A stretch of DNA of 59,143 nucleotides, the filler included, from Squatina squatina (Eukaryota): NCBI GenBank assembly GCA_031763465.1. It is 3 parts of 3 records of this genome, joined end to end, with 100 filler letters (N's around TTAATTAATTAA, not from the genome) between each part and the next. Parts side by side here need not be neighbours in the genome. Positions count along the whole stretch, not along the records: positions 14,032 to 40,541 come from JARFOE010000051.1; 2 more parts are not named here. The stretch is one strand, 5' to 3'. Below are positions 18,342-39,019 of this stretch, piece after piece. Below the pieces are notes generated by a model. The model was not told the DNA's origin and made no database searches. It saw nothing but the letters and a program-made list of their open reading frames with translations. Each line of letters opens with the position of its first letter. Position 1 is the first letter of the stretch. Both the position numbers and the translations under genes were made by a program.

Positions 18342-18877
18342 GTGTATATACAGTGGAAAAGTAAAACGAAATACCGGGGATGTGATATCACACTACTGAA
18401 GCACATTCAGACACCTGACCGATCCCCCGCCCAGCCACTGAGCTAACACCAGCCCCCCGCCCCCCCCCGGGGCGGNNNNNNNNNNNNNNNNNNNNNNNNN
18501 NNNNNNNNNNNNNNNNNNNNNNNNNNNNNNNNNNNNNNNNNNNNNNNNNNNNNNNNNNNNNNNNNNNNNNNNNNNTCCAATGCTGTAGTGCACTGTCAGC
18601 ACTGTTAGATGAAACATCAACTCTAATGTGGCCATGGTCACACTAAAGGCCCCAGCTGAAAATGCATCATGAATGACGTCACCAGACTCGCTCCCATCTC
18701 ATTGGGCCGGGTAACAGGCCTCAATAAAATAAATTCATTTTCAACAGCGGGATGGAGCCAGCAGCGGGGCCAGGACCTGACATGGCCACTGCCCGCAGCA
18801 GACCCGCCAGGGTAAAGAAAATTCCACCTGCTGGATCAAATGGCCAGCTTCCGTGCTGAAAATTTCTATGATTCTAT

Positions 18878-19145: not shown

Positions 19146-19617
19146 GACTGGAATTTTCCCTAAAAAAAACGGTGTTAAAAATGGTATTCCCGACCTGATC
19201 CCGCCTCCAACCTGCCGACTTCCGGTTTTAACGCAGGCAGGGCGGAAGACCAACCCGCTCCCGGGGGGCGGTACCTCATTTAAATATTGTAATGAGGCTG
19301 GAAGCCTCTTTATTAAATGATATTTTGAATTTAACTGCATGGTGATGGGTTTCACACAATTCCTGAAACCCAATAGTTAAACTAAGGCGGGGCTGCTGCA
19401 CCCAGGAGGTAAGTGGCTTTATACCTACCTCCTGGGTCTGACTATACTCAGCACCTCATGAGGCCTCCGATCATCTCCCCAGGCCGCCGATCCCCACTTT
19501 GAGGCCCCCCCATCCACTCGACCAATGATGCTGAGGCCGGCCGTTCCCGATTCTCTCTCATCCCCACCGATCCCCAGCCGACATCACCGGCTGACCACTC
19601 CCCCACCGATCCCCCCT

Positions 19618-22600
19618 AGTGCTAGTGCTGTTGGGGAGGGTTTAAACTAATTTGGCAGGGGGACGAGCACCAGGATGTAGCATTAGAAAGGAGAAACAAG
19701 GTGCACAAAGGATTGGGAGGGACTGATAACACCAGAGTAAGAAATTGTACGGTATTAAGTGGGTTCAGACTAAGAGAGAATACAAGAAGGTCTAAAACAG
19801 AGCATATGTGTGAATGCACGAAGTGTGGTCAGTAAAGTTGGTGAGCTGCAGGTGCAAATAGACACATGAGAATATGGTGTTGTGGCGATAATGGAGACCA
19901 GGCTCAAAAAAGGGCAGAATTGGGTATTAAATATTCCTGGATATTGTGATATCTTGAGACACAGCATGGCTTCTGGTAAGAACTGTACTGCCCATGTGCT
20001 TTATTATTATATACATCAGTAGTCACCAGTTGGCGCTATTACAGATATAAAGGCCGCGGTTTCGCCATGGGAGGCAGGTTGGGTGCAGGCCACAGAGGAG
20101 CTGTGTGGAAAACGCACTCCCCACCATAGCCTGCCCTCCCCCGACGATCTTCCCATGATTGGCCTGGTTAAGCCCGCCGTGAGGGCTTCCCCTCCAATTA
20201 ACTGGAAGCTGGACTGATGATGTCATATGATGACGCATCATCAGCCGGTTTTCTTAAAGGGACCATGGCCAACTCTTTTTCTGTCGGTGTTCTGCAGCAT
20301 TCAGAAGCTGCAAACATTGACAGGCACTGCACCAAAGTGCCACATTCACCCAGGCTCTCCCATGACTCCCTCCAGATGCTTATGCACGCAGGAAGATCCT
20401 CTTCCCTTGCAATGAGCAGAAGAGACCTCCCAGGACACCAATGCAGCCTGGTTGCACAGTGCACAGAAGGGAACAAGCAGGCATGTTGTCAGGAGGACCT
20501 GGCTGCAGTGGCGCAGACCTTTCAATGATCTCAGTAGATCATGAAACGTTACTATAAAGCTACATTCAACCTCATCCTGCTGTGCCACTCATCACATTCC
20601 CATTACTCTGTCTTCCCTACCCTCCTCCTGCATATCCGTAGTCACACCAACTTAACTTTTACCTTCACCCATCCCACTCTACATTATCACATCTCCATCT
20701 CGCTAGTCACCCCTCACACTCACCCTCATCCTTGTCCAATCATACCAAGGCACAAGGGTAGTCACTTGGGTGTTTCAGGCAATGATCATGTAGAGTTTCT
20801 GGTGAAGAGTTGTCAAACATTGAAATCTTTATTTTGAGCACTTTGCCTTCTTGGGACAGATTTGTGTGCACATTCTGAAGTGGCTTAGTGAGTTGTAGTG
20901 AATGCTGAGACATAAGGACACCCCGCACAATGATGATGTGTGTGAAGGGAATAGCATGGGCATTGCAGGGTTGCTTTATGGTGCTGGTGTGTTGTGGTGC
21001 CATCCTGGCGCATCAATGAGCCTCAAAGACTTGTTAAGTGCCTCAACGATTTGTCCTGCTGCTTACTGTTGGGTTTGGTAAGAGCGCAGATCCTGACAGC
21101 TGGGAAACTGACAAGGGGGCAGGATCGGAGCAGCAATCGGACCTGCTGTTAATTAAGGCCATTTTGCCAGCGGGCCTGCCCCCAAACCCACCCTCTGAGC
21201 TCCGGCAAAATTGTTCAAGAAAGTTAGAGAAGGAAAGAAAGGACATGGGCTGGCAATATTGATTAAGGAGACTATTACAGTGCTGGGGAGAGAGGATGTC
21301 CTGGAGGGGTCAAGGACAGAATCGATTTGGTTAGTGTTGAGTAACAATAGAGGTGCCATTACACTAAGAGGTGTATTCAATAGGCCGACAACTAGTGGGA
21401 AGTATACAGAAGAGCAAATTTGCAGGGAAATTATGGAGAGGTGCAAGAACTATAGAGTAGTGATATTGGGGGAAACCAACTATCCTAATATAGACTGAGA
21501 TAGTAATCGTATAAAGGGCAGAGAGGGGGAAGAATTTCTTAAGTGTGTTCAGGGGAACTTTTCTGATCAGTACATTTCCGGCCCAATGAGGAAGGAGCCA
21601 TTGTTGGATTTGGTTCTGGGAAATGAGGTGGGTCAAGTAGAGCAAGTCAGTAGGGGAACATTTAGGGAACAGTGATCACAGTATCATAAAGTTTAGATTA
21701 GTTATGGTAAAGAACCGGGAGAAATCTAGAGTAAAAATACTTACTTGGGGGAAAGCCAATTTCAGTGGGCTGAGAATGGATCTGGCCCGGGTAAATTGGA
21801 ATCAAAGGTTGGCCAGCAAAACTGTAATCAAACAATGGGTTGCCTTTAAAGAGGAGATGGTTCAGGTACAGTTGAGGTACATCCCACGAGGGGGAAAGGC
21901 CAGACCAAAGCCAGACCTCCCTGGATGACAAAAGAGATGGAGAGTAAGATGAAGCAGAAAAAGCGGACGCATGACAGATGTAAGATTGAGAATACAGGTG
22001 AGAACCAGGCTGAATGTAGAAAGTTCAGAGGGGAAGTGAAAAAGGTAATAAGAGGCGCAAAGAAAGAGTATGAGAATAGATTGGCTGCTAACTTAAAATC
22101 CATCTTCTATAGGGATATAAATAGTAAACGCGTAGTAGGAGGGATGTGGTCTCATAGGGTCCAAAATGGAGACCTATGCAGAGGGCATGGCTGAGGTACT
22201 AAATGAGTATTTTTCATCAGTCTTTACCAAGGAAGAAGATGCTGCCAAAGTCAGTGAAAGTGGAGGTAATTGAGATACTGGATGGGATAAAAATTGACAA
22301 GGAGGAGGTACTAGAAAGGCTGGCTATACTTAAAGTAGCTAAGTCATCAGGATCGGATCAGATGCATCCTCGGATGCTGAGGAAAGGTGGAAATTGCAGA
22401 GGTACTGGCCATAATCTCCTTGAATACAGGGCTGGTGCCAGAGGACTGGAGAATTGCAAATGTTAGACCCTTGTTCAAAAATGGGTGAAAGGAAAAACCC
22501 AGCAACTACAGGCCACTCAGTTTAACCTCAGTAATGGGGAAGCTTTTAGAAACGACAATCCAGAACAAAATTAACAGTCACTTGGACAAGTGTGGATTAA

Positions 22601-23838
22601 TTAAGGAAAGCCAGCATGGGTTTGTTAAAGGCAAATTGTGTTTAACTAAGTCAATTGCTGAGGTAACAGAGGGTTGATGAGGGCAATGTGGTTGATGTGG
22701 TATACATGGACTTCCAAAAGGCATTTGATAAAGTGCCACATAATAGGCTTGCAGCAAAGTTGAAGCCCATGAAATAAAAGGACAGTGGCAGCATGGATAC
22801 AAAATTGACTAAGTGACAGGAAACAGAGCGTAGTGGTGAATGGTTGTTATTCGGAATGGCATTTCCCAGGGGTTGGTACTGGGGCCACTGATTTTCTTAA
22901 TGCATATTAATGACTTGGACTTTGGTGTTCAAGGCACAATCAAAATTTACAGATGGCAGAAAACTTGAAAGTATAGTGAACAGTGAGGAAGATAGTGATA
23001 GACTTCAAGAAGACATAAACAGGCTTGTGAAATGGACAGTCATGTGGCAGATGAAATTTAACGCAGAAAAGTACGAAGTGATACATTTTGGTCGGAAGAA
23101 TGAGAGGCAATATAAACTACATCCTATAGAGGGGGCATGAACAGAGAGACCTGGGGGTATATGCACACAAATCATTTAAGGTGGCAGGGCTGGTTGAGAA
23201 AACAGTTAATAAAGCATATGTGATCCTGGGCTTCATAAATAGAGGCATTGAGTACAAAAGCAAGTTATGCTGAACCTTTATAAAACACTGGTTCGGCCTC
23301 AACTGGAGTATTGTGCCCAATTCTGGGCACCGCACTTTAGAAAGAATATGAAGGCCCAAGCGAGGGTGCAGAAAAATTTTACAAATGGTTCCAGGGATGA
23401 GGGACCTCAGTTACATGGATAGACTGGAGAAGGTGGGGTTGTTCCCCTTAGACCAGAGAAGATTTGATAGAGGTGTTCAAAGTCATGAGGGGTTCAGATA
23501 GAGTAGATAGAGAGAAATTGTTCCCATTGGCAGGAGGGTTGAGAACCAGCAGGGACAGACTTAAGGTGATTGACAGATGAACCAAAGGCGACATGAGGAA
23601 AAATGTTTTTACACAGCGAGTGGTCAGAATCTGTAATGCACTGTCTGAAAGGATGGTGGAGGCAGATTAAATCGTGGCTTTCACAAGGAAATTGGATAAA
23701 TACCTGAAAGAAAAAATTCACAGGGCTACGGGAAAAGGGTGGGGGAGTGGGACCAGCTGAAGTGCTCTTGCAGAAAGCTGGCACAGGCTCGACGGGCCGA
23801 GTGGCCTCTTTCTGTGCTGTAAACATTCTATGATTCTA
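19618..23838 (+). mobile_element. CR1 LINE with end of ORF1 and near-complete degenerate ORF2 (APE + RT), interrupted at ~19947-21209
   Basis: NARSVVSKVGEL...VVAIMET..LNIPGY, then FKKVREGKKG.GLAILIKE...TESIW...VVILG..NYPNID, NYRPLSLTSV, SQHGFVKG, YMDFQKAFDKVPH, LEYCAQFW, then tail attctatgattctat; many stops and frameshifts. Confidence 0.93.
19947..21209 (+). mobile_element. Harbinger-derived insertion carrying a decayed Myb/SANT-like gene remnant
   Basis: Splits the CR1 endonuclease between IPGY and FKK; 20340-20535 gives PRLSHDSLQML...ILFP...RRTWLQ.R..FNDL, like the Myb protein at 32676-32918. Confidence 0.65.
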
Positions 23839-24134
23839 TCCCCGATCCTCCCCTCCCCCGCTGATCCCCGACCGAGCCAGCCATTCCTCAACCCACCCCG
23901 CTTCCCCAGACCCCATGATCCCTCCCCCTCACACCCTCTGCTGAACTGAGGCCTATCCGCCAGCAGCCAGCCAACCTCCCAATCTGGCTGGCTGCCGGTA
24001 GGAATCCGAGGTTTGACAGGCAAATCAGGCCACGCTGTTAAAATCGGCAGGACCTGCGGGAAACTTGGCCTCACGGGTTTCCCGCCCACCTCAGAGGTCC
24101 CCCCACCCCTATCTACCTCGACAAAATTCCGGCC

Positions 24135-24800
24135 ATTGATATAGATTGTAAATAACTGAGGCCCAAGCACTGATCCTTACGGTGCCCCACTAGTTACAGG
24201 CTGCTAACCCAAAAATGACCCATTTATTCGTATTTATTTCTGTCGGTTAACGAATCCTCAATCCATACTATTACCCCCAATCTCATGAGCCCTGATTTTG
24301 TGTAATAACCTCTTGTGTGGCACCTTATTAAATGATTTTTGAAAATCCAAATACACCATTGGTTCCCCCTTCTCGACCCTGTTAGTTACAAAAATCTATT
24401 AGATTTGTCAAACACGATTTCCCTTTCATAAATCCGTATTGATTCTGCCCAATCATATTATGATTTTCAAAGTGCCCTGTAACGTCCCTAATGTATTCTA
24501 GATTTTCACTACTACTGATGTCAGACTAACTGGTCTATAGATTCTGTTTTCTCTCTTCCTCCTCAGGGTTATATTAACTACCTTCCAATCCTTGGGGACT
24601 GTTCTAGAAGCTAGAGAATTCGGGAAGTTCAAAAGCATTGCATCCACTATCTCTGTAGCCACCTCTTTTAAAACCCTAGGATGTAGGTCATCAGGTCCAC
24701 ACGATTTGTTGGCTTTTAGTCCCATTAATTTCTCCAGTACTATTTCTTTGCTGATAAAAATTTCTTTAAGTTCCTAATTCTCATGAGACCCTTGGTCCCT
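24135..24800 (-). mobile_element. CR1 LINE (outer host), part 2
   Basis: MGLKANKSCGPDDLHPRVLKEVATEIVDA...VPKDWKVVNIT...YRPVSLTSVV and LGPQLFTIYIN, which continues into 19145. Confidence 0.9.
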
Positions 24801-24887
24801 ATTAACAAGCAGCAATCTACAAAGGACAGCAGAGCAAGGTCAAGCTTCTGTAAAACCTTTTTCAACTTCCCACCCCAGAGAGGGGAA

Positions 24888-25023
24888 GCTGCACCGTTCC
24901 CAGAGGCACTGCAATGCCAGGTTGACTGAGCAAGCCAGTCCCATCTCCCAGATCAAAAAAGCACTTTTAATTTTTAGTCCCCAGATAGGGGACGTATCAG
25001 ATTTAAAAATGATAAGAGCAGAT
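24888..25023 (-). pseudogene. RNU2: U2 snRNA pseudogene fragment (~nt 38 to 3' end)
   Basis: Minus strand ATCTGCTCTTATCATTTTTAAATCTGATACGTCCCCTATCTGGGGACT...GGGAGATGG...GCTTGCTC...ACCTGGCATTGCAGTGCCTCTGGGAACGGTGCA aligns to recalled U2 (ATCTGTTCTTATCAGTTTAATATCTGATACGTCCTCTATCCGAGGAC...ACCTGGTATTGCAGTACCTCCAGGAACGGTGCA); 5' ~37 nt missing; Sm site degenerate. Confidence 0.88.
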
Positions 25024-25390
25024 TTTCTTTGGTTCAAAAATACAGTTTATTCATAACATTTCTAAAGGTACATTACAGTACAATCCAAATGTCGCAACTT
25101 AAATGGTACAATACAGATCACTTAGGTTAAATACTGTACATGCACTCCAGGGTGCCTTATTCCACTTACAGTCCAGATTACATTCACATTTAAAATCAAA
25201 TATTTTCCTGACACATTCACCCAAGGAGGTTTTACCCTGGTTGTGACCACTTGGTGTACTATGGGCGGTGCTGGGAGGGCTCCAAAATGTAGCCTTTCCC
25301 CATTGAGCTTTTGCAGCAGCTGCACCAAGCTTCACTGCGTCCCTGAGCATTTAGGCCAGGACTGTGGAATGTGCCGGTCTGCACTGCAGG
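25024..25390 (-). mobile_element. Tx1-clade (Keno-like) LINE 3' end
   Basis: ORF2 C-terminus MLRDAVKLGAAAAKAQWGK, 3' UTR ending atgaataaactgtatttttg and a short A-rich linker that abuts U2 at the position known for Keno insertion. Confidence 0.75.
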
Positions 25391-25601
25391 AGGCTGCCAC
25401 ATGCCTCAATTTGCCGCAAATGTGATGCACGCTAGGTTCCCCGCATATGTCATATATCTTCGACTTCCCCCAATGGCAAAGCTAGAAATGCAAACAAAGC
25501 ACAAGGATTTATTTCTAGGGGTATAGAATTCAAAAGTGGTGAAGTTATGATGGCATAGGATTCTGGCCAAGCTACACTTAAGAGTACTGTACACAGTACT
25601 A

Positions 25602-26745
25602 GGGCACCCAATTGGTCTTTAAGTTTGTGGCTATATGGGACCAATAAGAGTAAATTTAGTGCCCATTTTGCACCATTATTTTAAGACGCAGAATTGGTGT
25701 GTTAGAAAACTTTTGGGGGGCAGATTAAAAACTGGTGCTAAAAACCAGCGCTATCGGGACTAATGACACTTGTTTTTTCAGTAGACCAATTCTGCGACCG
25801 ATCTAAGGAGGTGCTATCAAGTGTCAGGCCACTTCAGCCCTTAAAGGTGATCATTCTGCAGACACAAGCAATGCTTAGGTCAGTCAGAGCATAGATCGCT
25901 GATGGGCGAGGAGCGATTGTCTTCGCAACTGCTGTGCTTGGCAGACATGATCGATGGCACCTTGGACCCTCGGGAAGCCGGCTATTATGGCGACGCCCAC
26001 AGCTCTGTCTTGCTGACCTGGCATCTGAGGAATCACCGATAGTACCTCATTTGATGTCACCTTCCTGTCCGACCTTTTGGAGGATGATGCTGGGCTGTGG
26101 CTTCTGCCACCAGTGAGGTCGAAGGCTGTGGCAAATGAAGGGTCGCTGGGCGTGCTGATGATGACCAACTGGTGCAACATCCTGCCTGGCTTCATCTTGT
26201 TCTGAGACCATCTCTCTCTGCTGCAAAAGGATGCCATTCCTGCACATCCGTACCCACTCCAACATTAGTGCTGGCCCCCATGGCTGAATAGCCCGATTGT
26301 TGTCAATTTCAATTGCTGAGCCAAATGCAAACAAAAATCTTCATAATGGCCGTTCCAAGTCCCACACAATGAATCCAAGGCATTATCAGGTCTCAAAATG
26401 GGTTTTTTTGCAATAAAAATGGCGGGGCCTCATAGACATTCAAATTGTGCCCAAAATAACATTCATTCCGGGTGTCACCGGCCAAAAAAAAAACGGGCGC
26501 CATCACCGTCACTTTAACGCCATGAGAACGGAGACCAATTCAGCATCGGGCGGCTGCGCCCTCTGATGACATCAGCGAGTCCATTTTATGCCCAGCGCCG
26601 TGTTTCCAGCGCTCCCGCAGTAGCGCCGGCGTTGACGGGAGACCAATTTTGCATCTTAGCGATTAGCGCCAAAAACGGTCGTTAGCCCCCTAATACCCGT
26701 TCTGCGCCCATTTAGCGCTAGCGCTGAGGGACCAATTGGGCGCGC
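25602..26745 (-). mobile_element. Non-autonomous Harbinger-family element (~1.15 kb)
   Basis: TIRs GGGCACCCAATTGGTC / GACCAATTGGGCGCGC (14 of 16 match); CpG-rich subterminal region; right ~550 bp is the reverse complement homologue of 33479-34020; no TSD visible. Confidence 0.75.
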
Positions 26746-26749
26746 AACA

Positions 26750-27330
26750 TCTCCATTCTATAAAAAGGACATAGAGCCACTGGAGGATTGTGCCAGACCT
26801 GAGAGATTACAACTATTGGGAAAGATTGAACAGGTTGGAGCTTTTATTTTAGACAAGAGAAAACATAAAGAAAACCTGATAGAATTATTTAACATAGGTT
26901 AAAATGGGTTGGACAGGGTAGATGTGGAGAAGCTGTTTTCACTTGTGGGAGAATCTAAAACTAGCAGTCATAAATACAAGATAGTCACTAATAAACTCAA
27001 CAGGGAAACAAGGAGAAATTTCATTACTCAGAGATTGGTTAGAATGTGGAACACTACCTCAAGAAGTGGTTGAGGCAAACAGCTTCGATGCTTTCAAATG
27101 AAAACTAGACGGGTACATGAGACGAAAGGGAATAAAAAGATGTTGTGAAATGGATGATCAGCCATGATCTCATTGAATGGCAGAGCAGGCTCGAAGGGCC
27201 GAATGGCCTACTCCTGCTCCTATCTTCTATGTTTCTAAAAGCTGAGATGAGATAGAATGCGAAGAAACTCGTGCAGGGTATAAATACCAGCACAGACTAG
27301 TTGGGTTTAATGGCTGTATATTCTATGTAG
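26750..27330 (+). mobile_element. CR1 LINE 3' fragments with two different tails
   Basis: YKKDIEPLE...GESKTSSHKYKIVTNK...RRNFITQRLVRMWN remnants; tail cagccatgatctcattgaatggcagagcaggctcgaagggccgaatggcctactcctgctcct at ~27160-27235. Confidence 0.8.
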
Positions 27331-27461
27331 TCAGAACAAAGGGGAGAGCTTGTAAAACAAACAGAGTGGAGAGGAAGTATTGGTGGAATCATTTGTAGCC
27401 TGCTTAAAAAATGGTAGGCTGAGATGAAGTAAGGTGGGAGGAGGCTTGTAAGGAGCATATG

Positions 27462-27925
27462 TTCCATTCACCCATCATCTCGTGCTCGCTGACGTACATT
27501 GGCTCCCGGTGCGGCAATGCGCAATTTTAAAATTCTCATCCTTTTTTCAAATGCTTTCATGGCCTCGTCGCTGCCCAGCTCCGTAATCTCCTCCAGTCCT
27601 ACAAGCCCGTGCGATTGCTGCGCTCCTCAAATTCCAGGATATTGCACATCCCCGATTTTCACTGCTCCCCCATTAGTGGCTGTGCCTTCAGCTGCCAGGA
27701 CCATGGCTCTGTAATTCCCTTACCAAACCTCTCTGCATTTCTACCTCTCTCTCACCCTTTAAGACACTCCTTAAAACCTACCACTTTAACCAAGTTTTTG
27801 TTCACCTCCTCTAATTATGACCTCGTGAGCAGCCCTGATTTTAATCGCTCAAACATCGGTGGCTGTACCTTTTGCTGCCCAGGCCCTAAGCTCTACAATT
27901 CCCTCCCTAAACGTCTCCACCTCAC
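27462..27925 (+). mobile_element. L2-clade LINE 3' fragments
   Basis: SPITH.LVLADVHWLPV, FKILIL, RLLRSSNS...IGGCTFCCPGPKLYNSLP remnants. Confidence 0.75.
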
Positions 27926-27928
27926 TGT

Positions 27929-28300
27929 GGGTGCCCAATTGATTCTCCAGCGCTTGCGCTAAATGGGCGTAGAATGGGTCTTAGGGGTCTAACGCCCGTT
28001 TTTAGCGCAAAATTTTAAGACGCGAAATTGGTGTAAATTTAACGCCGGCGCTAAATGAGCGCTAATGCAGGAGTGTTGAAACCGTGGTGCTGGGCATAAA
28101 ATGGACTCTGACGTCATCAGAGAGCGCAGTGCCCAAAATGGCCGCCCAACGCTGAATTGGGCTCCATTTCAATGGCGGTAAAGTGGTGGTGACAGTGCCT
28201 GTTTTTTTGGGTGGTGACACCTGGCATGGATGCTATTTTGGGCGCAATTTGAATGTCTATGAGGCCCTACCACTCTTTGATCAAGCTTTAGGTCACCCGC
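27929..28300 (+). mobile_element. Truncated Harbinger-family end (same family as 25602-26745 and 33479-34020)
   Basis: Starts GGGTGCCCAATT; shares ttaggggtctaacgcccgtttt and tgacgtcatcagag.gcgc with the other copies. Confidence 0.75.
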
Positions 28301-29496
28301 CCCAACATCTTGTGAAATTGAGGAGGACAAGGAAGGGTAATGTACCACGATCACAGTCCTGAATTTCATTCCTGGTTTTCGGCAGAATTTTTTGTTGTTT
28401 AAGCCAAATATTTTCTTGGGTTCAGTGTCAATGGTCATTCGTGTAAGCAGGTTTCATGTCCATCCCACAAAGGGCACCTTAACTTCAATCTCTAATAAGT
28501 ATCTCTGCTTATGCAGAAGTGCTACTTAATAGTTTAAAAAGTAATATTGCATTTCACTAACAAATTACTGAATACAATTGTGACTTGGTAATCTGAATTA
28601 TAGCACCATGACACATCATGTTGTAACAATCTTTGGATGCGTTACACTTACAGCTGCAATGTTGTCATGCGGTTTTGCTTTGCACCGGTGCTAGGGGGCA
28701 GCCTGAAAAAAGAGTAAGGACCTAACTTGACACAGGAGTGGAGTAGACCGAGATGCCACTTCATGTTGTAGCCAGTTCTGGTCTTTAAGGCCCGTAATTT
28801 GTGGTCAGCAGCAAAGCAAAGGCGTTTGTCACTGGGCCTGAAGAAAGCTGCCCACTGAGTTCTTGTGGTCTCTGTGGCAGAGTTTGCCTTTTTCGATGCC
28901 TAATTGATTGCAGCGCTCTGTAGTAGGAGTCCCTAGTGCGATTTGCTGTGACATCAACAGGCAAGTTCAAAAATACATTTTGCATTTTCAAAAGAAACAA
29001 GGGGCGGGGGGGCCCAATTAGAAGTTGTAGACTGTCGCGAATCGGGCGCCAAATGGGCGTTAGAGCCCTAACGTCGGCTGGTGGCGTCTGCATCATAGTG
29101 TAGAATTCGGCAGAGGCTGACACTGGCGTTAAAACGGCGTAGAAGGCTGGGTGCTGGTGGCGGCCGTCATGGCGGTGGCAGGCGTCTATGACGTCATCAG
29201 CCTATGCGCCGCCGATTCTACACCTAACGTTCTATATTGGCTTGGGCCAGCATTGTTTAAGGAGGGCGCTGAACACACCTGTTTTTTTCAGTGCAGAACA
29301 CCTCCATCTTGTCCAGGATGGCGGTATTTAAAGGAGCCTATCTGGCAGCCATTTTAAATCAGCAATTCTGGCTGCTGCTGCTGTGCTGGTGGAATACAAG
29401 TCTCAGGGATCTCAGTAGAACGTCAGGATTAGTGGGACATAGATTTCGGACTTGCCTATAGCACTCTCATGTCCCTGTATTAGGTTGTAGTACATT

Positions 29497-30800
29497 ATGG
29501 GTGCTGCCTTAGCGGTGGATATAGAACTTCACTGTCATCACATGATTTATCATAGAGGGAGATGTCGGCTTCACATGCAGCGGAGCAAGATAAGGCGCAT
29601 GCAAAATGCACTGAGGGCTGAGGAGCCAGAGGTTCATGTAAATGGGCATGGTCAGGGAAAAGCTGACACAGCCACCTGAAGCAGATCAGCAACAGGAAAG
29701 GCAGAATGCAGCTCCTGGTAGAAGTGGGCGAGGCCAGGGCAATAGGAGTAGATATGCTCTCAGAGTATTCTGTCCACATTTCACCTATCTCCAGGTGAAA
29801 GATGAGCAATGTCTGCAAAGACTGCACTTCAGGAACGACGTCATCACGGAGCTATGCCAACTATTTCAAGGTGACCTTCAATCTTACAGCAGGGCTTCAA
29901 TGACTCCATCAGTGGCAGTGAAAGTTACCATTGCCCTCAATTTCTATGCAAATGGGTCATTTCAGGGCGCAACCAGGGACATCTGTAACATCTCTCACTA
30001 TGCTGTACATTGCTGCATCAGACAGGTGACTAAAGCTCCATATCGAAAGAGGAGGCAGTACCTCTCCTTCCTAATCACCAGGCAGGATCAGCAAGAGCGA
30101 GCTGTTGATTTTGCCCGTATCACGGGTTTCCCCAAGGCTCAGGGTGCAATAGATTGTACCCAAGTTGCCCTCAGGGCACCAGAGCAAAATCCTGAGATCT
30201 TCCGCAACAGAAAAGGCTACCATTCCCTGAACATTCAGCTGGTGTGCAACCACACACACGAAAAATCCTTATGGTGGATGCGCGGTACCCTGGCAGCACC
30301 CACGGTGCCTTCATCCTTAGGCATGCCAGAGATGTTCCAGCCACCACTCTCTCCAAGGATGGATCCTTGGCAACAAGGGATACCCACAGGAAACATGGCT
30401 CATGACTCCCCTGTGAAACCCCAATACTGCAGGCGAGCTTTCATACAATGAAAGCCATGCTGCCACCCGCAATCTTGTTCAAGCAGAGGTTTCGGCGCCT
30501 TGACTGTTCGGGTGGCTCCTTGCAGTACTCGCCTCACTGGGTCTCCCAGTTCACCGTCGTCTGCTGCATGTTGCATAACCTTGCAATCATGCGGGCACAG
30601 CCACTTGAAGTGGAGATGCCAGAGGCAGATAATGAGGATGAAGAGAAGGAGAATAAGGAGCTGGAGGAACAACTTGCGGATCATCTTCAGGAAGTGCAAG
30701 AGGTCCCTAAGGAATGAAGAAGGGGGGGAGGAGGCACCGACCTCGATGTTACCCTGCCAGGGAAGCTAGAGTTAAACTCATTAGAGATAGATTTAGTTAA
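29497..30800 (+). pseudogene. Harbinger (HARBI1-like) DDE transposase, frameshifted
   Basis: CLQRLHF...ELCQL...VAVKVTIALNFYANGSFQ...GFPKAQGAIDCT...FRNRKGYHSLNIQLVC, then after shifts DARYPGSTHGAFIL, WILGNKGYP, KQRFRRLDCSGGSLQYSP...VVCCMLHN. Expected HD reads HG and GDKGY reads GNKGY. Confidence 0.92.
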
Positions 30801-30999
30801 ACGTCATGAGTGTTCCATTCCTTCTATGCCTCAACTAGGAGGTAGTGTGTTGGCCCGAACCATTGGCACAACAAACCTTGAGAAGGAAATGCATCATACA
30901 GTCAATAAAGGAAAAGACATTTAATCACAACATAAACTTTCAAACAAAAGGAAAAATCAATTACCCACCCGTTGTGAGAAACTGTACCTCCCCTTTCCT

Positions 31000-32918
31000 T
31001 AATGCCTATCCAACTACTTCTCCTTGGTGGGGGTGGTGTGGCTGCAACATGGCTGACACCAGGTTGCTGTGAGTCTGGAGCGGTAGCTACAGATGGCCCT
31101 CTGGGACACCCTCGGCGAGCTTTAACCCTGGAAGGGTCGGCTTCAGCTTGCGGAACCGGAGGGGTTGTTTCGGCAGGCTGGGGCTCATTGGTCCCAGGCC
31201 TGAGTAGTGTCAATGATGGCGTGCAGCTGCAACGAACAGGAGTGCTGCCATGCTGAGACAGCGCAGCAGGGTCCTGCTTGGATGAGTCAGTGACCTTTCC
31301 CCGGGAAAGCATCATCAGCATCCACACTAGTTGGAGAGAGGTCAGACTGGTGGAGAGCCATTGCACCGTTGGGCCCCCGGTCTCCTGTGATGGACCCAGT
31401 GGCGATAGCGGCAGTCAGTACTTGCATGGCCTCCAACTGAGACTGCCTGAGAGCATCATCATCATGGATACCAGCTAAAACTTCCTGCAAGGCATTTGCG
31501 ACCCCTTGCACACATCATTCTGAGCTTGCCTGAGAGCAGCCTCAGCATGTGTGCTAACAACCAGTGTTTCCACTGCAGCAGCAAGCCGTCGCGTTGCCTC
31601 GGCCTGTGCCACAATGATGGTCGGATCCTCACGTCCGCTCTATGAATCTAATATTGATTGCACGCTCCCAATGAGAGGCTGCAAGGTCTGCGTAGAGCTC
31701 TGCATGCTGCAGGAAGCGGACAACTCCACGCTCCTCACCACTTCTACAAGACTCTCGGGCACCCTTGCCATTGACGCAGTCATCTGCTCTTGCATCTGAA
31801 AGACTCTTTTATTGACAGACGCCCCGCCCAGGTCCTCATCTGAGCCATCGGAAGCAGCGTTGATTGGCCAACTGACCCTCTGGACAGCTGAAACATCAGC
31901 TTCCCTTGGCCTCGCACCCTGCTGGGACACTGTGCTTCACCCAGTGCTGACCCGTGGCGGGACCTAACCTCTAAATTACACGAAGTGGAAGTATCTAAGC
32001 TGGCGAATGATGCTGCTGGACGGTGTTCCCCCTCCTCCCACTTGCCCCTATCATCTTCCACAAGCTCCTCCAAGTCCATTACAGTGGATTCTTCATCAGC
32101 AATGTCTGGTCCTTCCTGTGACTGCGTCCCTTCCTCTGCAGGCACATCAAGCTCTGGGGATGAGTGATCGTCTAAAAAGAGGAAGGGGAGGCCACATACA
32201 TGAGGGTGAGGGGGGATGGGTGGCGGCATGGGGCACGTCTTCCTTCCACCATTACAATGGACTGCATCTTGAGGCGAGAGGGTCACAAGCAGAAATGCGA
32301 CACATGCACACATTCACTTACCATCATCTGCAGCAGTAGGAGGCACACCACCACCTGCAACTGGATGGCCCATGTCTCCTCCCAGTATCCTGGCAATGTC
32401 CTGCTCGATGTCAGATAGTGTAATGGTATCCGCCTCGCCTCCAGTTCTGTTCCTCGCTAGTTGTGCTACATGTAATAGGAAAAGCTACAGACTATCACAT
32501 ATATCTACCCGCTGCATGTCATGTCCAAGAAGCTGTGCCATTTGTTTCAAGGCCACAAATAATGATGCATGCATGTAGAACAGATCAAAGTTACATGATG
32601 TTGACATAGCCGCCCCCATCACAGGACTTTGATCACACTTGTACATTTGTATATTGAAGACAAAATGACACTTACTTTGACTTCACGACTAAGGTCGTTA
32701 AACTTTTTACGGCACTGATGTCCTGTTCGTACAACCACATCCGAGGTGGACATCTTCGTTGCTATCTCACTCCATAAAGCCCTCAGCATTTGTGCACTTC
32801 CCCTTTGGCCCCATTTTGCAAAGAATCGTGCCACCCTCCTCTCTACTGAGGACACCAGAGTCTCCAGGGCCGCATCAGTAATCTTGGGGGCTCTGGCCCC
32901 TCTTCCACCTGCTGTCAT
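31000..32918 (-). pseudogene. Harbinger Myb/SANT-like DNA-binding protein gene (intron-containing, decayed)
   Basis: Exon 1 32918-32676: MTAGGRGARAPKITDAALETLVSSVERR...LWSEIATKM...RTGHQCRKKFNDLSREVK|gtaagt; exon 2 ~32470-32322 (NRTGGEADTITLSDIEQDIARILGG|gtaagt); acidic/coiled-coil-like exon from ~32175; 3' boundary approximate. Confidence 0.85.
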
Positions 32919-33478
32919 TCCTGCAGTCTGAACGGCTTCACAAAGTCGCAGCACCCACTCCAGCAATAGCTCCTCTTTCAAAACAAGAACTATGGACTGA
33001 CCTGAGCAGTGGGTTACTGAGTGCAAACATTGCTTTTAAGGGTTCAGGTGAGCTGGTAAGTAATTGATCCTTATGAGGTAGTTCAGTGAATTGGTCCCGT
33101 GGAATCTATCCCGCCCACTTAACATCGCACCTGCATCCATTTACACTGATTTTAAGATCCATTTCGACCCTGCCTGAAAAATTTTTTTTAAAAAGGGACC
33201 AATTCTGCAGTTTAAGAGAACGGCGCAAAAAACAGCCCTATTTGGCACCTTAAGTTACCAGCACGGTGCAATCCAACTGGGCCCCCAAGGTCTTTGTCCA
33301 GTTAATGCATGAAAGGAAACAAGCAAAATTACAGTTAATATCACATTAAAACAATTATATTATGAAGTATTAATTTAAAACCATAAACATGAGTGAGATA
33401 TGTCAGGCATTACATGTAAATAAGCAAAGCATCTGTAAGAATGCCGCAAACATACATGATTTGGGTTTGAAATATTCT

Positions 33479-34020
33479 GGGCACCCAATTCTCACTCCGG
33501 CGCCAGCATTAAATGGGCACGGAATGGGCGTTAGGGGTCTAACGCCCGTTTTCAGCACTAAATTAAAATTTGCGAAATTGGCCTCAGTTCAGCACCGGCG
33601 CTAAATGGGCGATAAAGCGGGAGCGCTGGAAACGTGGTGTTAGGCGCAAAACGGCCTCCGTGACGTCATCAGAGGGCGCAACGCCCAAAATGGCCACTCG
33701 ACAAAGAATGAGCCTCAATTTCCTTGGTGCTAAACTGGCGCTGACAGCGCCTGGTTTTTTTGGGGCGGTAACACCCGTGCTGATATTTCTCTTAAGGCGC
33801 AAAATCATTGTCTATCATGCCCCACCATGTTTACCGCAAAAAGCCCCATCTGGAGACCTTATAAATCGTTGAAATCGTGTGCGCGACTTGGAACGGCCAT
33901 TTTTATGATTTTTGATGATCTTGGATGACCTCTTGAAAAGGGCTATTCGGCCATGGGGGCCATCACTAAAGGTGAGGTGTGGACGGACGTGCAGGGATGG
34001 CTCCTTTTGGAGCAGAGAGA
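33479..34020 (+). mobile_element. Truncated Harbinger-family element
   Basis: Starts GGGCACCCAATT; collinear with the reverse complement of 26745-26210, including ggctattc.gccatgggg. Confidence 0.78.
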
Positions 34021-34074
34021 CAAGTCACACTGATAGTGACCTTTGCCTGACCCTTTCGCTTTGTGACCATTCTG

Positions 34075-34230
34075 ACTATTCAACCACGGGGGTATTGGGG
34101 GTACGGTATTGATGTGGATAGAGAATTGGTTGGCAGACAGGATGCAAAGAGTCGGAATAAACGGGTCCTTTTCAGAATGGCAGGCAGTGACTAGTGGGGT
34201 ACCGCCAGGCTCAGTGCTGGGACCCCAGTT
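34075..34230 (+). mobile_element. CR1 RT fragment
   Basis: WIENWLADRMQRVGINGSFSEWQAVTSGVP.GSVLGPQ. Confidence 0.9.
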
Positions 34231-34333
34231 NNNNNNNNNNNNNNNNNNNNNNNNNNNNNNNNNNNNNNNNNNNNNNNNNNNNNNNNNNNNNNNNNNNNNN
34301 NNNNNNNNNNNNNNNNNNNNNNNNNNNNNNAAG

Positions 34334-34498
34334 CAATGTTCCCTGTAAGCTGCGCTTTGTTCTGCGTGGCTTGTTCCTTTTAATGCGTGGTCCCTTTAAA
34401 TTTCTGAGCATGTGTTACTTACAATGGAAAAGCCGGAGAGCGGGCTGCGCGGGAACTTTCCCATTACTACGCAGTCATGCAGTTTAGAGGGAACATTG
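34334..34498. mobile_element. 165-bp MITE (possibly hAT-type)
   Basis: TIRs CAATGTTCCCTGTAAGCTGC / GCAGTTTAGAGGGAACATTG; left flank lies next to a gap so the TSD cannot be checked. Confidence 0.72.
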
Positions 34499-35214
34499 TT
34501 CTCGAGGGCAATCAATGCTGGCCTTTCCAGCAATGCCCATATCCAAAGAATGAATTTTTAAAATGCCAACTGAGTGTTACTTTGCCCACATCTGGGCTGT
34601 AGTTTGGAGTGTAGCTGTTAGCCCCTCAGTGTACTTTCACGGAACTGAATCAACTATTGGATGAAAACTGAGACACTTTTTGTATTACAGACCTTTAGGG
34701 GCATCTGTGACTTTGTAATCTCTTGAAGGATAATATCCGTCTGCATCACTCTTAGAGTAGGACAAGCTGCTGACAGTCACAGATTGGATGTCAACGCAGA
34801 AAGCCCTTCAAGCATGATTTACAACAAGATGTGACACAAACAGAGAATATCTAACGCTGTGCAAGTTCTGCACTTTAGGATTTACAGATGGGCCCTGCAT
34901 ACCACAGATTGTGACCACCTTTTTTTTTCCAAGTCTTCACCGCTGTCTTTGTCACAGCTTCCGATATCTTGATACTTTCAGGCTATACCTAATGCTGCCT
35001 CCAGGAGTAAAGGGTTCAGCACCTTCACAGTTTCCAGAACATGAACTAGAGGGTGCCAGACATCAAGAGAAGAACTTAGAAAACATGAAAGTTTCTTTGA
35101 ATCCTCAGGAGTCTGACATAGTGGTCATTTTGATCTGAAGGTGACTTGCTTCTGCTAACCCCAAAAGAATCTGAAAAGAAAGAGGAAACTTTGACAATAC
35201 ACATATATATGGAC

Positions 35215-35405
35215 CAGAACTTGCCAATGGCAGCCATGCCTTCAAGCTCTTGAGCTCTGAATTCCATCCCTAAATCTCTCCACCTCTCTACTATTCTTTC
35301 CTCCTTTAAGAGGCTCTTTAAAGCCAGTCTCTTTGACCAAGCCTGTCCTAATATCTCCTTATGTGGCTCGGTGTCAAATTTTGTTTGATAGTCGATCCTG
35401 TGAAG
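35215..35405 (+). mobile_element. L2-clade LINE 3' end
   Basis: ggcagccatgccttcaagctc...gaattccatccctaaatctctccacctctct...ctttgaccaagc...ggtgtcaaattttg; same tail as 39020-39245. Confidence 0.7.
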
Positions 35406-35407
35406 CT

Positions 35408-36881
35408 ACTATCTCAGCACAACCCCAGCCCGACATGAGGTTGAAAAGGCCATCCGCCAACTGAGAAACAAGAAGGCCTCTGGCGCAGACAAAATCCCCG
35501 CTGAAATACTAAAACATGGCGGAGAAATACTCTTGGCACGAATCCCCTTATCTGGGAGGAGGAGAGCATGCCAGGTGATCTCAGACGCCGTAATCGTGAC
35601 CAACTTCAAGAAAGGAGACAAGTCCAATTGCGGAAACTAGATGGGGTCGCCCTGCTGTCCGCCACAGGGAAGGTCATCACAAGAATTCTCCTCAACCGTC
35701 TCCTCCCAGTGGTTGAAGAGCTCCTCCCAGAGTCACAATGCCGATTCCGCCCATCAACATGGACATGATCTTAAGTGCGCGGCAAGTCCAAGAAAAGTGC
35801 AGAGAGCAGCATCAGCCTCTGTACATGGCCTTCTTTGATCTCACAAAGGCCTTTGACTCTGTCAACCAGGAGAGATTATGGAATGTCCTTCTCAAATTTG
35901 GCTGCCCACAAAAATTCGTCACCATCTTCCACCTGCTCCACGATGACATGCAAGTCGTGATCCTCACCAACAGATCCACCACAGACCCGCTACAAGTGCA
36001 AACTGAGGTCAAGCAAGGCTGCATCATTGCACTAATGATCTTCTCCATCTTCCTCGCCGCAACACTCTATCCCATCTCCATGAAGCTCCCCGCTGGAGTG
36101 GAGTTAATCTACAGGACAAGTGGGAAACTGTTCGACTTCCATCGTCTCCAGTCCAGAACCAAGACCACACCAACTTCTGTATGCAGATGACACTTGCATG
36201 TGTGCACACTGAGAGGCTGAGCTCCAAACCATCGTTAATTCATTTACTGAGGCGTATGAGAGAATGGGCTTTACGCTAAACATCTGAAAGACAAAGGTCC
36301 TTTACCAGCCTGCTCCCACTGCACAACACTGTCCCGCAACAATCAAGAACCACGGCAAGCCCCTGGACAATGTGGATTACTTTCCAAACCTTGGGAGCCT
36401 CCTCTCACTGATGGCAGACACAGACGATGAAATCCAACACCGCCTCCAGTGTGTCAGCACAGCCTTCGGCCACTTGAGGAAAAGAGTGTTTGAAGATAAA
36501 GACCTCAAACCCGGCACCAAGCTCATGCTCAACAGGGAAGCAGTGATACCCGCCCTCCTGTATGCATCGGAGACATGGACAATGTACAGCAGGCACCTCA
36601 AAGCACTGGAGAAATATCACCAACGTTGCCGCCGCAAAATCCTGCAAATCCACTGTCAGGATAGGCATACCAATATCAGCGTCCTCTCTCAGGCCAACAT
36701 CCCCACCATCGAGGCACTGGTCACGCTCAACCAGCTTCGATGGGCGGGTCACATCATCCGCATGCCTGACACAAGACTCCCGAAACAAACACTTCGAGCT
36801 CTGTCACGGCAAGCGATTACCAGAAGGGCAGAGGAAACGCTTCAAGGACGTCCTCAAAGCCTCCCTGAAAAAATGTAACAT
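35408..36881 (+). mobile_element. RTE-clade (BovB/RTE-1-like) LINE, degenerate RT region
   Basis: LLPESQCRFRP, DMILSARQVQEKCREQHQPLYMAFFDLTKAFDSVN, VKQGC, ADD, YFPNLGS, LLYASETWT, QLRWAGHIIRMPDTRLPKQ, GQRKRFKDVLK; frameshifted. Confidence 0.93.
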
Positions 36882-37676: not shown

Positions 37677-38019
37677 ATTCCCAATAGATTGCTAGCTGAA
37701 AAGTGATTCTAAGAAAGGTAGGTGAATTGCCATGTGTGGTACTTCTGCTCTCCGCTGTAACCTTGGCCCAAGAGCCATGGAAACTCTGGAAAAATGGTGC
37801 TTTTGACATTTTTCTGGATTTTCCATTGGCTCTTCCACCAAAGTTATGGTGGATAGGAGCAGGAGCCCCCACAGTAATTCACCCCCATAGAACCATAGAA
37901 ACTTACATCACAGAAGGAGGCCATTCAGATCAACATGCCTGTCCGCTCTTTGCTAAAACAGTCAAAACTAATCTAACCACCCATAGCCCTTTATTATCCT
38001 CTTCTTGAAATAATATATA

Positions 38020-38700
38020 GAATTACATAGACTTTACAGCACTGAAATAGGCCATTCAGCCCAACTGGTCTATGCTGTTGTTTATGCTGCACAGGAACCT
38101 TCTCTGACCACTTCATCTCACCCCATCAGCACATCCTACTATTCCTTTCTCCCTTATATCTAGTCTCCCCATAAATGCATCGACAATATTCGCCTCAACT
38201 ACTCCATGTAACAGCAAGTTCCATATTCTAACCACTTTTTGGGTAAAGAAGTTCCTCCTAAAATCCTTAGGGATTTATTAGTGACTGTCTTATATTTATG
38301 TCCCCNNNNNNNNNNCTCGAAATATATGGCAGCATCTTTTCTACATCTACTCTATCAAACCCTGTCATAATCTTAAAGACCTCTATTAGGTCATCCCTGA
38401 GACTTATTTATAGAGTAAAGAGCCCCCAGCCTGGTTAGCCTTTCCTGATAGTTAGAACCCCTCAGTTCTGGTATCACCCTTGTAAATCTGTGTTGCACCC
38501 TCTCCAGTGCCTCTATATCCTTTATGTAATATGGCGACCTGAACTGTGCACAGTACCTGGAGTGTGACCTAGACATATAATTTAACATAACTTCTCTGCT
38601 TTTCAATGCTATTCCTGTCGGAATGTACCCCAGTGCTACGTTTGTATTTTAAAAAATGTTTTTGATGGCATTGCTACTTTTAATGATTTGTGAATATTTA
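38020..38700 (-). mobile_element. CR1 LINE 3' fragment
   Basis: KSREVMLN...YCAQFRSPYYIKDIEALERVQHRFTRVIPELRG..YQERL; tail near 38020. Confidence 0.85.
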
Positions 38701-39019
38701 TCTGCTCTTCTCTCTAAAGATGTAGTGGTGTCTGCTTAACTTACTCTGAAGCAATGCNNNNNNNNNNNNNNNNNNNNNNNNNNNNNNNNNNNNNNNNNNN
38801 NNNNNNNNNNNNNNNNNNNNNNNNNNNNNNNNNNNNNNNNNNNNNNNNNNNNNNNNNNNNNNNNNNNNNNNNNNNNNNNNNNNNNNNNNNNNNNNNNNNN
38901 NNNNNNNNNNNNNNNNNNNNNNNNNNNNNNNNNNNNNNNNNNNNNNNNNNNNNNNNNNNNNNNNNNNNNNNNNNNNNNNNNNNNNNNNNNNNNNNNNNNN
39001 NNNNNNNNNNNNNNNNNNN

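Follow-up and report, generated by a model that had tools for sequence, protein, structure and literature searches.

A Keno-like LINE fossil joined to the 3' part of U2 snRNA in the genome of Squatina squatina

Background

In a stretch of 59,143 nucleotides of DNA from Squatina squatina (here called the window), a 0.7-kb fossil of a Keno-like LINE is joined on the minus strand to the back part of a U2 gene. Keno is an APE-type non-LTR retrotransposon of the Tx1 clade that is specific for U2 (Kojima and Fujiwara 2004, as cited in passages of PMC4494074, PMC4640811 and PMC6136364). The locus raises the question of whether the LINE inserted into a U2 sequence that already stood here, or whether it arrived with the U2 sequence as a tail. 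An earlier note on this DNA proposed the latter. The features on which our answer is built are collected in Table 1.

Table 1. Features of the cassette and its immediate neighbours, in window positions
Position	Strand	Feature	Basis or remark
24135..24804	-	CR1-like LINE fragment, 5'-truncated end facing the cassette	RT-coding similarity to other copies in the window
24805..24883	-	About 80 nt after U2, with 3'-box-like word at 24866-24856 and no A-tail	Likely the U2 gene's own 3' flank
24884..25022	-	Decayed 3' part of U2 snRNA, beginning at nt 39 and lacking 12-13 nt of the stem III region	RF00004
25023..25287	-	3' UTR with AATAAA (25051-25046), T-run and short A-rich linker	Layout as in control junctions
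25288..25383	-	Last 32 codons of a Tx1-family ORF2, one in-frame stop	phmmer, tblastn; directly fused to the ORF1 piece
25383..25486	-	Keno-type ORF1 piece, one frameshift; present 5' end of the element	Frameshift-aware alignment, profile
25486..27240	+	CR1-like LINE fragment in opposite orientation, starting exactly at the end of the ORF1 piece	Similarity to copies in the window

Results

Junction of the LINE tail with U2

The Rfam model of U2 (RF00004) matches positions 25050-24884 on the minus strand (46.3 bits, E = 4.2e-06), just above its gathering score of 46; this is the sole Rfam match at the gathering score in 59 kb of repeat-rich animal DNA. Model positions 1-37 are occupied by the LINE tail, and a good alignment begins only at U2 nt 38/39; the first unambiguous U2 base is nt 39, at 25022. 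The 3' junction is the published Keno site, U2 nt 38/39; the 3' target of Keno is printed in the passages of PMC6136364 that we cite, and, according to PMC4640811 in part, the downstream U2 of Utopia begins at nt 39 with 3' flanks identical to those of Keno.

As controls, metagenome contigs were scanned for AATAAA followed by the U2 target, and nine loci were returned, six of them (L002 and L006-L010) with recognisable Tx1 ORFs. Among viral contigs the searches gave no matches, one chance match, and 268 pattern matches with none confirmed; prokaryotic genome contigs gave no matches. The register of the window junction equals that of all nine control junctions, which were selected for that register. 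The spacer between AATAAA and U2 measures 23 nt in the window compared to 17-22 nt in the nine controls. AATAAA and the U2 start belonged to the search pattern in this comparison, whereas the T-run and the shape of the A-rich linker, which the control tails and the window tail have in common, did not. Between the 3' UTR of the window element and the fish UTRs no clear alignment was obtained (best z 4.2). Over 132 aligned bases, the U2 part shares 76.5-80.3% identity with its counterparts in L002, L003, L004 and L010; this level of identity to four fish-type sequences, together with the nucleotides lost in the stem III region, indicates that it is old.

Two of the control loci deserve a separate description. 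L004 has a 3' and a 5' U2 junction in opposite orientation within one 1.6-kb contig, beside a U5 gene. In L005 (342-400), the U2 sequence after AATAAA and an A-run begins at nt 39 but gives way to unrelated DNA after only about 27 nt, and the 341 nt upstream have no clear match to Keno UTRs; L005 could be a short carry-over of the target or a U2 sequence broken on its 3' side.

ORF2 and its protein relatives

A phmmer search with a 40-residue read-through of the ORF2 end against 1.84 billion proteins gave two matches (E = 4.9e-05 and 3.2e-04), one of them from the whale shark. A search started from one of these matches found 19 proteins among 216 candidates, and all 11 that carry a species name come from sharks or rays. 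A word-indexed protein search with the 51-residue piece from the window matched none of 40 candidates. Compared with eight elasmobranch Tx1 proteins, the ORF2 C-terminus (25383-25288) has 56-75% identity over 31-32 aa to six, including 75% to the catshark protein P0004 (tblastn); a seventh aligns over 25 aa at 60%, and the eighth is without that region.

In the full-length relative P0045 the window ORF2 end aligns with residues 1106-1137. The domains of P0045 are an N-terminal APE (PF03372), a reverse transcriptase (PF00078) and zf-RVT (PF13966). The APE endonuclease of this relative places the window element with the Tx1 type and not with Utopia, which is characterised by a restriction-like endonuclease and an NeSL-clade reverse transcriptase and is ruled out on this ground. 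P0045 is 33.5-37.8% identical to four ORF2s that meet U2 at their 3' end; these values fall inside the spread among the four themselves (down to 30.7%), in a comparison limited to these five sequences. ORF2 pieces of the family, known as protein relatives whose flanks are not visible, occur on 6 different contigs in Heptranchias and on 9 in Cetorhinus, and their spread suggests that the shark Keno-like family may not be confined to U2 genes. Elsewhere in the window, a reverse transcriptase fragment at 35437-36106 (plus strand) belongs to a LINE class other than the CR1-like copies and matches Keno ORF2s by tblastn with E of 1e-07 to 1e-09.

The structural part of the earlier note is borne out by these results. 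It had read the minus strand as a Tx1-type ORF2 C-terminus and a 3' UTR with AATAAA and A-rich linker that run into U2 at about nt 38, and every item is present; the proposed RF00004 check recovers U2, sound from nt 38/39. The Tx1 assignment of ORF2 agrees with the elasmobranch proteins and with APE-bearing P0045, and the junction register and the ORF2 matches combined support the description as the 3' end of a Keno-like Tx1 element placed at the Keno site of U2.

A piece of ORF1 and an internal deletion

The ORF1 piece is about 100 bp or about 34 codons long and covers the end of the second ZCCHC3-like RNA-binding domain and the first zinc knuckle, as located by Pfam on the control ORF1s, the comparators being only about 40% identical. 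Frameshift-aware alignment with four control ORF1s gave scores of 50-59, which were reached by 0, 1, 0 and 1 of 276 control stretches. With a profile of the four ORF1s, the piece came first of 397 distinct matches in the window with a score of 56.4, the next having 38.6 (mean 22.0, sd 4.0). Its tail probability depends on the fit, with 0.004 matches expected by moments and 1.1 by a maximum-likelihood extreme-value fit; the rank and the exact adjacency to ORF2 are a stronger argument for its identity than the tail probability. A plain HMM of ORF1, which does not allow frameshifts, scored the piece at noise level (0.4), and tblastn searches with the control ORF1s missed it, so that only frameshift-aware scoring detected the piece. 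A search for shark ORF1s found two proteins, neither of which spans the zinc-knuckle part.

The ORF1 piece stops on the very base where the ORF2 similarity starts (25383), and the joint has a 5-nt direct repeat. By the ORF coordinates of L006, about 4 kb is missing between the two pieces, and the distance from the ORF1 piece to the U2 head is expected to be only about 0.55 kb (L009) to 0.85 kb (L006). The fusion of ORF1 to the ORF2 end therefore points to an internal deletion of roughly 4 kb and to a U2 head that would have stood less than 1 kb further up. It also indicates that large deletions have struck this copy, whose U2 part lost 12-13 nt as well. Unless the deletion was already present in the donor, the window copy is not a typical short 5'-truncated insertion.

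The earlier note had described a truncated LINE at 24860..25390. The missing 5' end stands; a simple 5' truncation does not, since ORF1 is fused to the end of ORF2, and the upper limit has to be moved by about 100 bp to 25486, the added part being ORF1.

The fusion could also mark a non-autonomous derivative, that is, an internally deleted form of Keno that was copied many times, an idea that can be combined with other explanations of the locus. The clean joint at 25383 with its direct repeat would fit, and internally deleted non-autonomous LINEs exist (R2 SIDEs in PMC3414825; PMC4494074; both in the passages cited). There is one copy only, however, and the known cases retain the 5' end, which is absent here, and we consider such a derivative very improbable. 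The element is here named Keno-like, as its sequence resembles Keno in the junction, in ORF1 and in ORF2, the U2 head being absent.

The missing U2 head

As the earlier note had observed, U2 nt 1-37 are not seen upstream of the LINE: an Rfam search at E <= 10 over 20000-36000 gave just one U2 match, in a test that a decayed piece of 25-37 nt could escape, and the 5' junction stretches of four control loci found only chance matches of 9-15 nt in the window, its own junction aside. The Keno trait of a U2 5' part upstream is thus not found in the window copy, whose own 5' end is gone too. The missing head needs no special cause, given the ORF1 piece and the LINE that abuts it at 25486. As neither promoter nor U2 head survives, the original site is not established as a U2 gene.

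Among the controls, the U2 head is kept in all four loci that hold the 5' end of the element (L002, L006, L007 and L009), which makes in-place insertion the norm; four of the nine are uninformative on this point owing to contig ends. The head is about 26 nt long in L002, L006 and L007, and 51 nt long with a 13-14 nt duplication in L009. With ORF2s only 31-32% identical and different 5' junctions, L009 on one side and L002, L006 and L007 on the other appear by sequence to be two Keno-type lineages. L009 (5083-5164 and 1-131, minus strand) looks intact, has two ORFs and is preceded on its 5' side by U2 nt 1-51.

In L003, the one 5'-short copy among the controls, no more than about 450 nt of Keno-like UTR are present, there is no U2 head, and another repeat lies against the 5' end. 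The 2283 bp that follow downstream match the U2-U5 array of L002 at 96% identity, and a headless junction can therefore occur together with a U2-array flank. L003 could represent a deletion in place or a long transduction. The earlier note had taken the headless U2 as a sign of retroposition; this argument is weakened by L003, where the head is also absent and 2.28 kb of U2-U5 array follow.

U5 or 5S lies within 335-1022 nt of the U2 end in all four controls with enough flank, compared to none in 59 kb of the window, where Rfam found no other snRNA or 5S gene. No tRNA genes were found, and self-comparison of the window gave no second copy of the cassette. The solitary position of U2 in 59 kb, set against the U5 or 5S neighbours of the controls, argues against an insertion in place, although shark U2 genes may be arranged otherwise than those of the controls.

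The flank after U2 and the neighbouring LINEs

The stretch after U2 (24805-24883) contains no poly(A), the longest A run being 5 and the A fraction 0.20. The 3'-box-like word that the earlier note had pointed out is indeed present; it lies 17 nt beyond the stretch matched by Rfam and follows what we take to be the 3'-box consensus. By chance, the window should have 0.003-0.03 words of such shape per 35 nt, for patterns chosen after the word had been seen. This word and the further flank are equally expected for an insertion in place. A 9-bp inverted repeat at 24863-24891 links the U2 end and the 3'-box-like word, and the hairpin past the U2 end is no more stable than shuffled sequences (z -1.04).

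No target-site duplication brackets the cassette, the longest exact match between its two ends being 7 nt and off the boundaries, and no terminal repeats were found around it. An 11-nt near-repeat (24861-24871 and 25459-25469) was rejected as a target-site duplication, since the similarity to ORF1 extends through it. An A-tail may also exist on the far side of the left-hand LINE in a form that is no longer recognisable.

The LINE fragments on both sides carry protein motifs that we take to be those of CR1. The left-hand copy resumes at 19147-18878 beyond a nested insertion. The intervening 5-kb block at 19148-24134 has short inverted ends, cleanly splits the minus-strand copy with an apparent 3-nt duplication, and holds a long plus-strand CR1-like copy at about 19600-23840; it looks like a DNA-transposon relic with nested insertions. 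Runs of N (assembly gaps) occur at 18475-18575, near the far end of the left-hand LINE, and at about 38750-38800, in another CR1-like copy. The right-hand LINE is interrupted by a nested repeat at about 25660-26770; its segment 25486-25613 shares 66% identity with the copy at 38649-38528, and its segment 26787-27237 shares 60% with 23385-23838. A GC-rich repeat has three copies 70-75% alike (26213-26746, 27928-28277 and 33478-34020), one of them nested in the right-hand LINE. Neither the plain HMM nor the frameshift-aware profile found more of Keno ORF1 beyond 27240 or elsewhere in the window. As ORF1 does not resume beyond 27240, an additional deletion has to be assumed in place of a simple insertion of the right-hand LINE into ORF1. 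The original neighbourhood of the cassette cannot be recovered from the window.

The position of the cassette next to the 5'-truncated end of a LINE with the same orientation could be the result of a template switch, the reverse transcriptase of the left-hand CR1-like copy having moved over to a read-through RNA of Keno and U2; snRNA-LINE chimeras of this kind are described in passages of PMC4494074 and PMC3414825. In a strong form of this scenario the two flanking LINE pieces would be halves of one twin-primed insertion, and the left piece does end about 35 nt short of the start of the right piece in the reverse transcriptase gene. However, the right-hand LINE scores 96.5 against the copy at 38010-38800 and 64 against the copy at 1-810, compared to 53 and 97 for the left-hand LINE; these opposite preferences, though modest evidence, make the two pieces look like different subfamilies, and leave twin priming of the flanking LINEs unsupported. 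The left piece moreover ends at the 3' end of another LINE beside an assembly gap, and adjacency to a LINE is cheap evidence since CR1-like pieces are everywhere in the window. We regard a template switch as hardly credible.

Discussion

Our preferred reading, to which we assign a probability of about 0.6, is that the cassette is a decayed and internally deleted Keno-like LINE that was inserted in place in a U2 gene or pseudogene and later eroded. Tx1 elements insert by target-primed reverse transcription. On this knowledge, the APE endonuclease would have nicked U2 DNA at nt 38/39 and the LINE RNA would have been copied at the nick, with U2 from nt 39 to its end and the 3' flank staying in place and never having moved. 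The original insertion would have been long, reaching ORF1, and would have lost about 4 kb of its middle later; the last 0.55-0.85 kb of 5' sequence and U2 nt 1-38 would have been removed by a deletion that accompanied or followed the insertion of the LINE now beginning at 25486. The cassette is probably without function now. This reading is favoured by a flank past U2 that has neither poly(A) nor a bracketing duplication, and by the presence of another LINE where the U2 head would be expected. For Utopia, passages of PMC4640811 report that 5'-truncated copies lack flanking U2 and that copies in Phytophthora have no U2 5' part upstream of them.

The retroposition proposed in the earlier note would require a transcript of Keno-in-U2 that passed the weak poly(A) signal, continued through U2 from nt 39 to its end and the 3' box, and was copied into a non-U2 site, with reverse transcription starting at the far end of the RNA and the target being carried along by 3' transduction. 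The isolated site, without another gene for a small RNA in 59 kb, and the dispersal of the family over many shark chromosomes are consistent with this scenario, as is L005, where U2 gives way so soon to non-U2 DNA. Target-specific LINEs are described as using read-through RNA with the downstream target (R2Ol in PMC6530143; also PMC4494074), and 3'-box cleavage can be inefficient (PMC12667742), in the passages cited. On the other hand, in R2Ol it is at the true site that the downstream target helps annealing, and insertion off target does not appear in the cited part of PMC6530143. A transcript of snRNA type would normally end before the 3' box, a box whose role is described in part in PMC12667742. 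The A-tail and the target-site duplication are both absent, though they could have been lost with age or to the LINEs on either side; the missing U2 head is already accounted for by the ORF1 piece and the abutting LINE, and the window has a single copy. With about 4 kb of internal loss added, the anatomy of the locus speaks rather against a read-through RNA retroposed to a non-U2 site. We consider this scenario unlikely, and somewhat less so, though still well short of even odds, if the version with a template switch is counted with it.

A Keno-disrupted U2 gene could also have been duplicated or moved as DNA with only part of the LINE, by segmental duplication, as an orphon derived from an array, or within another repeat. 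Such a copy would explain together why the 3' flank looks genomic, why marks of retroposition are lacking and why the position is an orphan one. There is no second copy in the window, however, and no terminal repeats surround the cassette; the additional step comes without a positive sign, and we find it quite improbable.

If the cassette is an eroded insertion in place, it matters little beyond adding a cartilaginous-fish example of Keno-type U2 targeting. It also serves as a warning that Rfam matches to U2 in shark genomes include halves broken by a LINE. More would follow from a shark Keno lineage, possibly short and internally deleted, that reads through U2 and its 3' box into non-U2 sites, the existence of which we find distinctly doubtful. 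Such a site-specific LINE would bear its own target as a tail and seed U2 pseudogenes throughout the genome; the family would show a site-specific LINE escaping a small set of targets and making new U2-like sequence, and on the 3' side it would correspond to Tx1-Mar and SINEU with their snRNA heads. No description of Keno with a transduced U2 tail was found in the literature searched, which consisted mostly of open papers, with Repbase and the original Keno paper outside it, and the ten supplements of PMC4640811 contain no mention of Keno, shark, CMi or Callorhinchus.

Comparison with known systems

The window element shares with Keno the 3' junction at U2 nt 38/39, the same downstream target, and AATAAA with a short A-rich linker, and its relatives have the two-ORF anatomy of Tx1 (APE, reverse transcriptase and zf-RVT in P0045; a ZCCHC3-like ORF1). 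It differs from Keno in that its family is found in cartilaginous fish, where the cited passages of the literature name frogs, fish, lancelet, hydra and vertebrates in general, and in that the window copy is internally deleted, has lost its 5' end and the U2 head, and is not near an snRNA cluster. Utopia, of the NeSL clade and with a restriction-like endonuclease (PMC4640811, in part), is alike in its U2 site and in having copies without the upstream U2 5' part; unlike Utopia, the window family has a relative, P0045, with the APE endonuclease PF03372.

Tx1-Mar and SINEU of crocodilians (passages of PMC4494074) are similar as Keno-related Tx1 elements that have left U2 targeting and are associated with snRNA-derived sequence. 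They carry U1 or U2 as a 5' head, whereas U2 in the window lies on the 3' side of a single copy. R2 SIDEs (PMC3414825, in part) resemble the cassette as a target-specific LINE shrunk by a large internal deletion, but keep their 5' ribozyme end and are multi-copy, in contrast to the one copy without a 5' end in the window.
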